Of a stretch of 64,000 bases of DNA, positions 17,099-57,742 are shown piece by piece (positions within the stretch are counted from its first letter, which is position 1; each line of letters starts with the position of its first letter). The position numbers and the translations under genes were made by a program. Under the pieces are notes generated by a model. The model was not told the origin of the DNA, searched no databases, and was given only the letters and a program-made list of their open reading frames with translations. The stretch covers positions 160,001 to 224,000 of the forward strand of contig JBAXKC010000001.1 of the NCBI GenBank assembly GCA_037137535.1, given 5' to 3'. The DNA is from a bacterium (GTDB taxonomy: Bacteria > Cyanobacteriota > Vampirovibrionia > Gastranaerophilales > JBAXKC01).

Positions 17099-18688
17099 TT
17101 ATAAGAAAGCTTGAAGTTTTTTCTTTGGCTCGGCTTGTGAAGTAGTGGAATTACAATCTGCATAAGCCTTTAAGCCTGGAGATACACTTGTACCTGTTCT
17201 GTGTTCCCTGAAAATATATTGCAATTTAGGTAATAAATAACCTAGGGAAATACTACATAATGCCATATTTAAAATCGTCATTCCGCCTTTTAATACTTTT
17301 GTCTTAGTAATAAGTGAATCGAGTGCTTTTTCTTCATTAATAGCCTTTCCAGCCTTATTTATAAAGTTACCGACATGATCATATAGATTTTTTAATTCAC
17401 TAACTTCAATAAACTTAGACGGATTTAAAATATGTTTTCCATCTTGCTCTATTACTTCAATAATTCCCATTTTCTGAGCGGTTTTTAGTAATTCATCAGT
17501 AAATTCACCTGTTTTATTATTTAAATTGCCTGTAATAAATTTAATAACTTTTTCTTCATTAAATTTATTGTCTTTATTCGCATTTGCAAATATTTCCACA
17601 GGCTTAAAGTTTTTAAATAAAGCCTTATTATTATCAAGAGCTTTAAAGTCAAGATTAATAGGTAGGTTTATTTTATCTGCAATCGTTGCTAATCCGTCTT
17701 TAATTATTTTTGAAGCAAAGAAGAAAAAGAAAATAATTCCGCCTTCTCTTAAAGCTATTTCAGCTCTTTCATCATTATTTCTTGCATTTAAAACTCTACT
17801 TCCTGAAATTGCAAAATCAACAGCAATCATATTTCCGACAGGATCAATCTGAGCAGAAGCTGCCTGATTTGCTAACTTGTCTATGATTCCGCCAAAAGCA
17901 ACCTGTTTTTTAGAATGTTTTTCCAGTATTGCCGTAAAGGTAGTATTTTTTGCAGGAACTGAAAGTGCCATGCCTTGCTGTAAAGATTGACCTGCAAGAT
18001 TTGGATAATTTGATTTTGTAGAGGGCTCTTTACTTCTTTTTTCTTCAATAAGTTTTTTAGTTAATCCTTGATTAAACTTAGGAAGAGCATAAGCAAGAAA
18101 AGCAAAAGGAACTAAAGTTGAAACAACTAACTTTGCAATATTATAACTCTTATACTTTGATTTATTAAGAACACCAAGTCCTGCTTTAAGAATTTCTTCT
18201 TCTGAAGCATTTTTATTTTTAAGAATGGTTTTTCCTAATTCTATAAATTTATTTTTATTGTCGCCTAAGCCCGCCACAAGTTTTCCATAAGCGTTTTCAT
18301 CTTTAAGATAAGCACTTATTAAATCCTGGTTGATTCCGTGTGAAAAGCATTGAACGCCTTCACTATTTATTTTTTTAAGTGATATATGCGGATTTATATC
18401 CTTGAAAGCCGGTATTAATGATGAAACTTTATCAAAAGCCCATCTACAAGCAGGGATACCGCCAAGCCAGACTACTGAAGTCCCGACTTCTTCTATAAAT
18501 CTTTCTCTTGCCTCATGAACTCCACTTTCTTTGGAGTGTTTGCTTCCCTCATTGTATGCCATAGTAGTTCTGCCGCATACATCAACCATATCTTTGGCTC
18601 CAACCAGCCATAGAGAAGAAGGATTGTCCAGATTGGACATAATAGGCGTAATGACTCTGCCTACTGTTGGAAGTGTTAAATTAATCAT
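17099..18688 (-). CDS. Hypothetical membrane-associated protein with two homologous halves
   Basis: 529-aa ORF, RBS GGAGGGAG; hydrophobic segments; internal duplication (see findings). Confidence 0.8.
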   Translation of the reverse strand: MINLTLPTVGRVITPIMSNLDNPSSLWLVGAKDMVDVCGRTTMAYNEGSKHSKESGVHEARERFIEEVGTSVVWLGGIPACRWAFDKVSSLIPAFKDINPHISLKKINSEGVQCFSHGINQDLISAYLKDENAYGKLVAGLGDNKNKFIELGKTILKNKNASEEEILKAGLGVLNKSKYKSYNIAKLVVSTLVPFAFLAYALPKFNQGLTKKLIEEKRSKEPSTKSNYPNLAGQSLQQGMALSVPAKNTTFTAILEKHSKKQVAFGGIIDKLANQAASAQIDPVGNMIAVDFAISGSRVLNARNNDERAEIALREGGIIFFFFFASKIIKDGLATIADKINLPINLDFKALDNNKALFKNFKPVEIFANANKDNKFNEEKVIKFITGNLNNKTGEFTDELLKTAQKMGIIEVIEQDGKHILNPSKFIEVSELKNLYDHVGNFINKAGKAINEEKALDSLITKTKVLKGGMTILNMALCSISLGYLLPKLQYIFREHRTGTSVSPGLKAYADCNSTTSQAEPKKKLQAFL

Positions 18689-18709
18689 TGATTAGTTCTC
18701 CCTCCAACC

Positions 18710-18796
18710 CTATAATCCCCATAGGAGTGACATCCAATCGACTCTTTTGAGCCAATTGGTACTCCTATTAATTCTAAATAAACTTTCGGTATGCAT
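18710..18796 (-). CDS. Unannotated 28-aa Trp-rich small protein or leader peptide MHTESLFRINRSTNWLKRVDWMSLLWGL
   Basis: Manual translation; GGAG 6 nt before ATG; paralog at 19130-19213 with synonymous codon differences. Confidence 0.75.
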   Translation of the reverse strand: MHTESLFRINRSTNWLKRVDWMSLLWGL

Positions 18797-18891
18797 CGTG
18801 ATCTCCATATATATTAAAAAACATTTTCTTCTTGATTTTTGCTTAATTATTGTTCAAATGTTAATAAATAGAACAAAAATTTAACTTTGAT

Positions 18892-19119
18892 TCATGTAAC
18901 ATCAATAAAAACATGAATACATCGCTTTTTTATCCTAAAAAAATCAATAAAATCAGCAATAATGCACGAAATTATATTTATTTGACTCATATAATGATTA
19001 ATTTTTAATAAATCTTGCTGTTTATCTTTCAAAGAGGTTAAGTTATCTCTCTTTTTTTCAGATAAAAGAGGTTTATTAAATATTAAACTGTCATAGTGTC
19101 TTAACAAATTCATCACCAT
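18892..19119 (-). CDS. Hypothetical 73-75 aa protein
   Basis: AGGAG immediately upstream (true start perhaps ATG 19113); follows the second small ORF. Confidence 0.5.
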   Translation of the reverse strand: MVMNLLRHYDSLIFNKPLLSEKKRDNLTSLKDKQQDLLKINHYMSQINIISCIIADFIDFFRIKKRCIHVFIDVT

Positions 19120-19129
19120 TACTCCTAAA

Positions 19130-19213
19130 TCATAATCCCCAAAGCATATTCATCCAGCTGACTCGTCTGAGCCAGTTTGATGAATTTAATATAATGCTTC
19201 GTAAATTGTACAT
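19130..19213 (-). CDS. Unannotated 27-aa Trp-rich small protein or leader peptide MYNLRSIILNSSNWLRRVSWMNMLWGL
   Basis: Manual translation; AGGA upstream; shares NWLxRVxWMxxLWGL* with 18710-18796. Confidence 0.75.
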   Translation of the reverse strand: MYNLRSIILNSSNWLRRVSWMNMLWGL

Positions 19214-19374
19214 AGGTTTTTATTTCCTGAATTTCTTTTATATGTTCATGTAAAACCATTACAAACAAATTATTGATTGGAAAGATTACACTTATTTACA
19301 AAAGTTAAAATTTAATATTACATTTTAAAAATTATACATGAAAAAATAGAAGTTTCAATAATCTTAATAAAGGC

Positions 19375-20190
19375 TTAATCTATACTGAAAGCAAAATCTT
19401 TACCAAGAACCTTTTCTCTGAGGCTTAGAAGGTCTTTACCATACGCCTTTGTCAGCTCGTCGCCCAGCGTCTGCTCTACATCAAGTAAAAACATATCATG
19501 AATAATAACTTCTTTCATAACAAGGACTATTCCTGGGTTTTTTGTCCATACAGCCTGTGGAGCACCTTTTATGCTTGAAATAACACCTGTTATTCCTTCT
19601 TTATCATCGACAGTTATAACAACCCAACGACCGCCTAAAGAATTTTCAATAGTTCGACCTAATCCATGCTGATAAACCAAGCCAAAATCAAGAGTTACAT
19701 CGTTATATCCGACAACTTTAATATCAACGCCACGGTCATAAGCTTCTTTTAACGGTTTTTCAAGATAAGGCAAATCTTCATGCCATAACTCCAGAAAAAT
19801 TTCACTTTGAGCATGTTCTATCATCTCAATTGCTTTTTTATAAATATTTTTTTCGCCATTCAAATTTAAAATAGGCTGAACAACATTTTCAGATAAATTA
19901 GACAAGTTATCTCTTAAAAAACTAACTGAAGAATTAAAAGCTCTTTCACATCTTGTTAAAAGCTCGTCATGAGGGATAGGAACATAAGTTGCAGGCTTCG
20001 CACCTGTTGCAACAACGACTTGTCGAGTCTCAAGACTTTTTAAAGTATCATAAGCTCTTGCCTGCGGAACTCCAGATTCTTTACTTACTTCATAACCTGT
20101 TGCAGGATTATGTTTTAACAATGCAACATAAACTTTAGCTTCATAAGAATTAAAGCCTAATTCTTTTAAATGTGATAAAATATCATCCAT
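19375..20190 (-). CDS. TrmB family transcriptional regulator
   Basis: LGFNSYEAKVYVALL...ATGYEVSKESGVPQARAYDTL; C-terminal PLD-like effector domain. Confidence 0.92.
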   Translation of the reverse strand: MDDILSHLKELGFNSYEAKVYVALLKHNPATGYEVSKESGVPQARAYDTLKSLETRQVVVATGAKPATYVPIPHDELLTRCERAFNSSVSFLRDNLSNLSENVVQPILNLNGEKNIYKKAIEMIEHAQSEIFLELWHEDLPYLEKPLKEAYDRGVDIKVVGYNDVTLDFGLVYQHGLGRTIENSLGGRWVVITVDDKEGITGVISSIKGAPQAVWTKNPGIVLVMKEVIIHDMFLLDVEQTLGDELTKAYGKDLLSLREKVLGKDFAFSID

Positions 20191-57452: not shown

Positions 57453-57526
57453 CGGGAAGTAGCGCAGCTTGGTAGCGCACCTCGCTTGGGACGAGGGGGT
57501 CGCAGGTTCGAATCCTGTCTTCCCGA
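57453..57526 (+). tRNA. tRNA-Pro(TGG)
   Basis: Acceptor CGGGAAG/CTTCCCG; anticodon arm CCTCG-CTTGGGA-CGAGG; GGTTCGAATCC; no encoded CCA. Confidence 0.96.
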
Positions 57527-57569
57527 TATCTAAAGATCAGAATTAAACCTTGAAAATATAATAAAAAAT

Positions 57570-57642
57570 GCGGGTGTAACTCAGTTGGTAGAGTGATAGC
57601 CTTCCAAGCTATATGTCGAGAGTTCGAGCCTCTTCGCCCGCT
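57570..57642 (+). tRNA. tRNA-Gly(TCC)
   Basis: GCGGGTG/CGCCCGC; ATAGC-CTTCCAA-GCTAT; T-loop TTCGAGC. Confidence 0.95.
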
Positions 57643-57665
57643 ATTTTTATATTTTATAATATTAT

Positions 57666-57742
57666 GGCGAGTGTCGCCAAGTGGTCAAGGCATCGGTTTG
57701 TGGTACCGATATGCGTGGGTTCAACTCCCATCACTCGCCCCA
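57666..57742 (+). tRNA. tRNA-His(GTG)
   Basis: G-1, GCGAGTG/CACTCGC, TCGGT-TTGTGGT-ACCGA, C discriminator plus encoded CCA. Confidence 0.96.

Follow-up and report, generated by a model that had tools for sequence, protein, structure and literature searches.

Among the described leader peptides closest to the element reported here, TnaC of the Escherichia coli tna operon responds to free tryptophan and works through Rho-dependent termination across a long spacer. We analysed a stretch of 64,000 nucleotides (nt), called the window below, from a member of the Gastranaerophilales (contig JBAXKC010000001.1 of assembly GCA_037137535.1, positions 160,001 to 224,000), in which two micro open reading frames on the minus strand (micro-ORFs A and B) encode peptides ending in Trp-Gly-Leu followed by a stop codon (WGL-stop). 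Each of them contains an RNA hairpin, and micro-ORF A lies just ahead of a gene for a 529-amino-acid (aa) protein (17099..18688, minus strand), an all-helical member of an orphan family restricted to Melainabacteria and the predicted regulated gene. The two hairpins fold more stably than encoding the peptides alone would demand, and the WGL-stop element is probably a ribosome-sensing leader peptide with an associated mRNA structure.

In TnaC, a short upstream ORF with a conserved Trp and a conserved last residue controls the downstream genes by stalling at its stop codon (excerpts of PMC8450073 and PMC8429421), an arrangement that the WGL leaders recall. They differ from it in that their stop codon is located 4-5 nt before the next Shine-Dalgarno (SD) sequence, that all three stop codons are used and that no ligand is assigned; no sequence relationship with TnaC was seen, without formal comparison. 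Translation of the orf34/SpeFL leader of speF in Salmonella and E. coli unfolds an inhibitory structure at the downstream ribosome-binding site (RBS); pausing at two consecutive Arg codons re-routes the folding (excerpts of PMC6386406). Similarly, an in-frame CGA-CGN arginine pair is present in 14 of the 27 WGL leaders that we collected (CGA and CGT correspond to 6% and 10% of Arg codons) and in many micro-ORFs located farther upstream in relatives, whereas the two copies of the window lack the tandem pair and the gene concerned is an orphan, not an ornithine decarboxylase gene. In the very short leader PepNL of E. coli, no inducer is needed for release to be blocked at the stop codon; the arrest takes place at UGA, and read-through by Trp-tRNA relieves it (excerpts of PMC11890864); the WGL family, in contrast, uses TAA, TAG and TGA. 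The relatives share with the trp and his attenuators an upstream micro-ORF with tandem codons of regulatory appearance followed by alternative antiterminator and terminator structures, and one family of orthologues (f3) has leaders with His runs. The window differs from these attenuators by the lack of a terminator between a promoter-like site and the main gene and of a U-run 3′ of the hairpins. In the erm and cat systems, a hairpin sequesters the SD or the start of the resistance gene. These systems resemble the present one in combining a leader ORF with an mRNA hairpin, the position of the ribosome deciding downstream expression (excerpts of PMC5499644), but the large hairpins described here contain neither an SD nor a start codon, and only a weak separate hairpin, at copy A alone, touches the main AUG. 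In full-text literature whose coverage leaves out most subscription journals, nothing was found that links Melainabacteria, Gastranaerophilales, Vampirovibrionia or 'WGL' to leader peptides, upstream ORFs, attenuation or stalling.

An earlier note on this DNA had described two minus-strand hairpins with a common apex and outer stems that differ in sequence; both can be read directly from the sequence, and in both copies the differing outer stems pair and close at the same codon. Hairpin A (18721..18768, minus strand) consists of an 8-bp outer stem pairing AUAGGAGU with ACUCCUAU and an 11-bp inner stem pairing CCAAUUGGCUC with GAGUCGAUUGG, capped by an AAAA loop. It is located inside micro-ORF A (18710..18808, minus strand), which encodes 32 aa from the first ATG (MEITMHTESLFRINRSTNWLKRVDWMSLLWGL), ends with NWLKRVDWMSLLWGL and stops at TAG; the presence of GGAG 6 nt upstream of the second ATG (18796) suggests that the peptide is probably 28 aa long. 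Hairpin B (19140..19201, minus strand) stacks three stems (8, 7 and 7 bp) under an AGAC loop and is located inside micro-ORF B (19130..19213, minus strand; 27 aa, MYNLRSIILNSSNWLRRVSWMNMLWGL, stop codon TGA), also a member of the WGL-stop leader family. Its apex pairs CUGGCUC with GAGUCAG and its middle stem AUUCAUC with GAUGAAU (7 bp each), and the outermost stem of 8 bp extends it from 19200-19141 to 19201-19140. Each hairpin is contained in its micro-ORF and terminates at the UGG of the common WGL-stop ending, the final base of hairpin A being the U of this Trp codon and the 3′ arm of hairpin B lying on the conserved W-M-N-M-L-W codons. The total stem length is 19-22 bp. Both stems include G.U pairs, which form on one strand only, and the minus-strand RNA is more stable than its complement (-23.4 vs -17.6 kcal/mol for A, -22.1 vs -20.1 kcal/mol for B). 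Both hairpins stop at least 15 nt upstream of the SD, and neither includes the RBS of the leader or that of the main gene.

The 91-nt (A) and 96-nt (B) stretches that fold into these structures have minimum free energies (MFE) of -28.8 and -28.2 kcal/mol, values reached by none of 200 dinucleotide shuffles for A (z -4.00) and by one of 200 for B (z -4.44). Synonymous recodings drawn from the codon usage of the genome fold as well in 3 of 2000 cases for A and 4 of 2000 for B, and recodings matching the structure confined to the ORF were not obtained for either copy (0/400 and 0/400). When the existing codons are permuted among identical amino acids, which is a weaker control, hairpin B is still significant (2/1000). 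Two codons that are rare in the genome are used at the apex of both copies: CTC accounts for 2.9% of the Leu codons and GTC for 8.1% of those for Val. Both hairpins are kept in the MFE and centroid structures of the whole 666-nt leader (z -5.7, 20 shuffles); a long-range pairing in the same fold, between a CU-rich segment of the 5′ untranslated region (19293-19274) and the main SD, is within chance (67/500). The 15-nt motif TGGCTC-N4-GAGTC common to both apices occurs in two exact copies in the window, for 0.23 expected, and no further exact copy is present in the 2.95-Mb genome.

Micro-ORFs A and B are paralogous copies of one upstream ORF found across the Gastranaerophilales. They are identical at 34 of 48 nt over the final 16 codons and at 5 of 21 nt directly upstream, and their outer stems are made from unrelated 5′ sequences. 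Of the 11 positions of the inner stem of A, nine are also paired in B, one of them after a compensatory change (U-A to C-G) and another after a change on one side only; the remaining two are broken. Each copy has three Trp codons and no CGN-CGN pair; an AGA-CGA pair is found in the hairpin loop of B and none in A. No other micro-ORF of 12-50 aa ending in WGL-stop is present in the 2.95-Mb genome. The DNA sequencing runs covering the stretch contain no variants and therefore offer no population-level covariation.

We collected 27 WGL micro-ORFs in distinct contexts, corresponding to 26 distinct nucleotide sequences and distributed over at least seven families (f1, f2, f3, f6, f7, f8 and f9). 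The W-G-L-stop ending is invariant in all 26 sequences, and its codons vary: Gly is encoded by GGA (6), GGC (6) or GGT (14), Leu by TTA (10), TTG (10), CTA (5) or CTG (1), and the stop codon is TAA (15), TAG (10) or TGA (1). An Asn at position -7 is present in 25 of the 26 (AAT 13, AAC 12). The middle of the peptide varies in sequence and length; the N-terminal half of the peptide is basic and the C-terminal half hydrophobic. In all 27 cases, the next gene on the same strand is an orthologue of the 529-aa protein gene, and the distance from the end of the micro-ORF to its ATG is 10-48 nt. More generally, a micro-ORF of a conserved type precedes the orthologue in 29 of 29 loci, with 15 of the WGL type, 11 with a His run and 3 ending in ...ILNIF (locus L022, in which the match begins at residue 62 near a contig end, was left out). 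A scan of 81 further loci revealed 14 leaders of the WGL type and one of the NIF type, all among the closest orthologues, and no such micro-ORF ahead of distant paralogues (about 20-29% identity). Species-representative genomes contain no member of the family of this genome, and a metagenome scan gave a single locus, with 33% identity.

The His-run leaders (e.g., M..NSLKLHHIHHHS.LGRL) all belong to family f3, in 11 loci (L020, L021, L023-L027, L029, L031, L032 and L017). They (e.g., MIKNNSLKLHHIHHHSDLGRL and MFTPSVKRHHHNHHHCH) are located about 100 nt upstream of the orthologue and lie within strong nested stems whose 3′ arms come after the stop codon. The third type of leader, ending in ...IMGVILNIF or ...KIILNIF, is found before orthologues of families f4 and f5 (L012, L016, L008 and L034). 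We also observed that a GGAGG(C) is kept 17-19 nt upstream of the main ATG, i.e., farther than a usual SD, in L009, L011, L014, L033, L013, L015, L018, L006 and L019; in the L009 group, it lies within a mini-ORF of four codons (ATG-GAG-GCT-CAT-TAA).

The free synonymous variation at the invariant W-G-L-stop indicates selection on the peptide rather than on the nucleotides. In the hairpins inside the ORFs (those of the window and that of L019 described below), the 3′ arms fall on codons that are conserved, and their complement comes from the more variable 5′ half of the peptide. The dual constraint, on peptide and structure, proposed in the earlier note is supported, the hairpins exceeding the folding dictated by the peptide and being more stable in the minus-strand RNA.

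Across the family, RNA structure accompanies the WGL peptide in some lineages only, not uniformly. When leader and spacer are recoded synonymously, the two copies of the window (z -3.56 and -3.23), L030 (-3.43) and L018 (-2.93) stand out, and L042, L009, L006 and L028 are near z -2. Several relatives present a long-range helix, with a 5′ arm after the Arg pair, a 3′ arm after the stop codon beside the SD and a sequence that differs in each lineage. Shuffling of the spacer gave helices as good in 0 of 500 cases for L007 and L028, 1 for L015, 2 for L013, 3 for L009, 9 for L010, 10 for L018, 12 for L033, 15 for L014 and 18 for L011 (all out of 500); these ten sequences represent about five lineages, kin not being independent, and the helix is not significant in the other 15 leaders from outside the window. 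In six leaders with the pattern A-N-x-P-x-V, an apex hairpin GGC-N4-loop-N4-GUC pairs in 35 of 42 cells, the proportion in slid controls being 21-43%; one pair is compensatory (A-U in four leaders and G-C in two). L019, from family f6, has an analogous hairpin inside its ORF (4 of 400 recodings as good), whose outer stem UAUUCA/UGAAUA lies on the same Met-Asn codons as AUUCAUC/GAUGAAU of copy B. The inner 5′ strand of L019 has AUUGGC in common with that of copy A, in another frame (T-L-A vs N-W-L), and the Val codon is GUC in both. The apex of the window copies could not be aligned by MAFFT with that of other leaders. A search of 401 genomes of the order for the apex pattern followed by TGGATG gave 63 matches; among those checked, only the two copies of the window and the genome of L019 corresponded to leaders, 30 fetched loci having no WGL micro-ORF and 30 more matches being unchecked. 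Searches against Rfam detected only three tRNAs in the window at the gathering threshold, only chance matches to small nucleolar and long non-coding RNAs at positions 18300-19500 (E<=10) and only tRNAs in 18 related loci (E<=0.1).

In most related loci, a second micro-ORF is present farther upstream (e.g., MRIRKYQRRCFYTN in L009 and MKKLNYTNIRRNKLRLSKA in L036), followed by a GC-rich hairpin and a T-run (e.g., L009:780-1060, with an equivalent stretch in L005, L036 and L013, among others). Sequence of 200 nt or more ahead of the WGL leader was available for 23 loci from outside the window. An automated count over the 210 nt preceding this leader detected a terminator-like hairpin with a T-run in 20 of them, placed between it and the upstream micro-ORF; the same count found none at the two copies of the window. 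Near the stop codon of the upstream micro-ORF, an antiterminator-like segment complementary to the 5′ arm of the terminator was detected in 11 of 22 scored loci (p<=0.05), and 15 upstream micro-ORFs contain an in-frame CGA-CGN pair. This upstream tier has the predicted layout of a ribosome-dependent attenuator, and it looks like a ribosome-mediated attenuator not yet described.

The order of elements at the locus of the window is a promoter-like site, leader B, a 75-aa ORF, leader A and the 529-aa gene. The promoter-like site (TTGAAA-16-TATAAT, 19331..19358, minus strand) has 11 of 12 matches and is located upstream of micro-ORF B, just past the stop codon of a TrmB-family gene; since the promoter scan gave 5 sites for 5.4 expected, without overall enrichment, it should be read as a match to the consensus only. 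No terminator-like site was found on the minus strand from 19358 to 18688, the best candidates reaching -5.2 and -5.8 kcal/mol. The spacer between leader stop and next ORF measures 21 nt for A and 10 nt for B. In the former, the SD of the 529-aa gene (GGAGGGAG, 18698..18705, minus strand) begins 5 nt past the stop codon of micro-ORF A, and 9 nt separate its end from the ATG at 18688; in the latter, an AGGAG (19126-19122) begins 4 nt past the stop codon of micro-ORF B and precedes the 75-aa ORF (18892..19119, minus strand). A local hairpin at copy A (18683..18717, minus strand) pairs the end of the micro-ORF (GAUUAU, Leu and stop) with the main start (AUGAUU), leaving the SD in the loop and inner stem; its energy of -7.0 kcal/mol (z -2.84) is matched by 2 of 200 shuffles, and the equivalent at copy B is weak (-3.1 kcal/mol, 31/200). 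A ribosome at the stop codon would also release this start codon from the hairpin, which would suit termination-reinitiation or occlusion. The features of an arrest leader that can be tested in silico, namely a position beside the gene and the conservation of C-terminal amino acids, are found in these putative leaders.

With a modest lean in favour, we take hairpins A and B to be selected mRNA structures in two paralogous cis-regulatory WGL-stop leaders, and we infer that the leader acts in cis through the ribosome translating it. The element is best read as a cis-regulatory leader that would sense ribosomes and may be a termination-arrest peptide, combined with an mRNA hairpin specific to the lineage. 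The ribosome translating the leader would melt the hairpin and then terminate slowly or arrest on WGL-stop. As the SD begins so close to the stop codon, a terminating or arrested ribosome would cover it, and would keep open the weak hairpin joining the end of the leader to the main AUG. Expression of the 529-aa gene would then depend on the transit and exit of the ribosome, by occlusion and then termination-reinitiation. The hairpin would represent the structural half of the device in this lineage and would determine how ribosomes pass through the leader and how its mRNA is folded. Other lineages would use the long-range helix and the CGA-CGN pair for this role, plus the upstream micro-ORF with its terminator and antiterminator, an element that this locus would have lost, having instead the second leader copy (B) before the 75-aa ORF.

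Several observations weigh against this reading. Under codon permutation, hairpin A is not exceptional (244/1000). The paralogy of A and B means that their common apex may partly reflect descent. In the seven leaders with the closest peptides (..K-x-W-M-N-x-x-WGL; L004, L005, L035, L036, L037, L040 and L045), folding does not exceed that of synonymous sequences (z -0.29 to +0.61), and 91-375 of 400 recodings do equally well. Covariation at the apex of the six A-N-x-P-x-V leaders is weak, 39 of 500 shuffles being as high, and no consensus structure emerged when RNAalifold was applied to 15 leaders aligned by MAFFT, probably owing to differences in register between the arms. In partition-function models, the accessibility of the main RBS at copy A is 0.33 at every ribosome position, and in the helix-bearing relatives it rises by only about 0.1-0.17 when the ribosome is on the 5′ arm. 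A ribosome parked at the stop codon would itself cover the SD, so that regulation could be on or off, and the use of all three stop codons indicates no mechanism specific for a release factor. With the RBS accessibility barely altered and hairpins that do not include the RBS, a simple SD-hiding hairpin is not supported. The earlier note had suggested that the 3′ arm of copy A could re-pair with the downstream RBS; the modelling shows no such exchange. Its broader proposal of a translation-coupled switch would fit the short distance from stop codon to SD and the putative terminators and antiterminators of the relatives, but not the absence of the hairpin from the homologues with the closest peptides.

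The unaltered accessibility of an RBS that neither hairpin masks, the length of the stems and the fact that close peptide relatives do without hairpins would also fit micro-ORFs that are regulatory and hairpins that serve mRNA stability or processing in an AU-rich leader, by protecting it from endonucleases or by offering a site for a double-strand-specific RNase. Two contigs from RNA libraries of a sample that may be the source of this DNA, covering 18481-18712 and 18513-18701, end at 18712 and 18701, i.e., 9-20 nt 3′ of hairpin A, a weak hint in this direction given that contig ends are not RNA ends. We consider this explanation unlikely: the hairpins lie within translated ORFs, where ribosomes would melt them, and their 3′ arms are placed exactly on conserved codons, ending at the WGL Trp codon in both copies, a placement that L019 keeps. 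It is less likely still that the WGL peptides are trans-acting micro-proteins, for instance partners of the downstream helical protein, with hairpins merely tuning their synthesis. The conserved amino acids, the location always beside one protein family and the division into basic and hydrophobic halves speak for such a role, but the conservation is concentrated right before the stop codon, with a middle that varies in sequence and length, and the distance from stop codon to SD is tightly kept. Conservation of the C-terminus next to the stop codon is typical of peptides acting at the ribosome. Moreover, unrelated micro-ORFs (His-run or NIF) replace the peptide at the same site, which fits a cis-acting device better than a binding partner.

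That the hairpins could be neutral relics, i.e., a duplicated segment self-complementary by chance and without function, is suggested by their restriction to two paralogous copies in one genome, by the permutation result for A and by the close relatives devoid of them. This appears improbable, since extended pairing has persisted in both copies despite their divergence, with outer stems of unrelated sequence and a compensatory change, the rare apex codons are retained, no recoding matched the ORF-confined structures and L019 has an analogous hairpin. The earlier note had offered as an alternative that TGGCTC-N4-GAGTC is a duplex-DNA operator of the adjacent TrmB-family regulator, whose gene (19375-20190; Pfam TrmB, E 2.3e-21) is located directly upstream on the same strand, and the motif is indeed near-palindromic and present twice. 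Nothing else was found in favour of this proposal, which we regard as highly improbable. The half-sites are not true DNA palindromes and require G.U pairs, so that the complement folds 2.0-5.8 kcal/mol less well; the sites lie within ORFs and are preceded by the promoter-like site at distances of about 130 and 560 nt; and the unrelated stem extensions of A and B make sense for an RNA, not for a protein-binding site. No regulon is evident either, the genome containing, besides the two exact copies, seven one-mismatch matches compared with two for the reversed control, and no TrmB homologue was found in the fetched flanks of 110 related loci.

Returning to the ribosome-sensing leader, a more ambitious version of it can be formulated, which we regard as conceivable but doubtful. 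WGL-stop would be a new termination-arrest motif and the core of a two-tier ribosome sensor of Melainabacteria, in which a micro-ORF with a CGA-CGN pair would govern a terminator and antiterminator and a second micro-ORF would then park the ribosome beside the RBS of an orphan membrane-associated protein. In the window, the terminator tier would have been replaced by the duplicated WGL leader, and the codon-pair sensor by a stable hairpin inside the ORF that sets the transit time.

The family of the 529-aa protein comprises proteins of 450-530 aa, and 47 of 61 genomes from this order contain a homologue; further homologue loci belong to Candidatus Gastranaerophilales / Melainabacteria, and five orthologues from Logan/JGI assemblies (P0002-P0006) are 53-60% identical to it. 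The protein has no match in Pfam or NCBIfam, its homologues are all annotated as 'hypothetical', and its Atlas neighbours are all hypothetical proteins of Melainabacteria. Its AF2 model (pLDDT 82.4) gave no Foldseek match, and the best hit in a wide VIA-align search (Z 6.2) corresponds to noise for a helical protein. A complex prediction of the peptide with the 529-aa protein scored 0.00, which counts neither for nor against binding. The two RNA-library contigs correspond to the 5′ end of this gene and provide weak evidence of its expression; they end short of the hairpins and prove nothing about hairpin transcription. A paralogue of 617 aa is encoded elsewhere in the genome (G000 contig C4, 86933-88786, plus strand) and is preceded by a 17-aa ORF (MFLKFQRVESLEGRNLI) whose TAA overlaps the ATG (TAATG) and whose ending is not WGL.

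The 75-aa ORF between the two leaders has no match in Pfam or NCBIfam, its sole database match being a shorter reading of the same sequence, and it shows no likeness to the 529-aa protein. Its C-terminus (..RIKKRCIHVF..) resembles the upstream micro-ORF of relatives (MRIRKYQKRCFYTN), which is a suggestion only, and an 8-bp hairpin (AUUCAUGU/ACAUGAAU, 18890-18918, minus strand) spans its stop codon. Together, this hairpin and the end of the 75-aa ORF may be a remnant of the attenuator tier. Another ORF, of 24 aa with a TTG start (18681-18755, minus strand), is found in the +1 frame relative to leader A; it has an AGGAG 6 nt upstream, within the 5′ arm of hairpin A, and its stop codon TGA shares bases with the main ATG (ATGA). 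As there is no equivalent at copy B, this ORF may be due to chance. Elsewhere in the window, three tRNA genes stand in a row (57453-57739, plus strand).

Ribosome-regulating leader peptides are known from few model bacteria, and the present one comes from uncultured, non-photosynthetic relatives of Cyanobacteria, with an invariant three-residue C-terminus that has no match in the libraries searched and a lineage-specific protein encoded downstream. The related loci form a natural series in which the same peptide ending occurs without RNA structure, with a long-range helix or with a hairpin inside the ORF; together with the replacement of whole leaders at the same site (His-run or NIF-ending), this series could show how the peptide and RNA halves of such a device evolve. 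If WGL-stop does arrest termination, it would be a new and very short arrest module, and the arrest would give a clue to the conditions that call for the orphan gene, such as amino-acid or translation stress.

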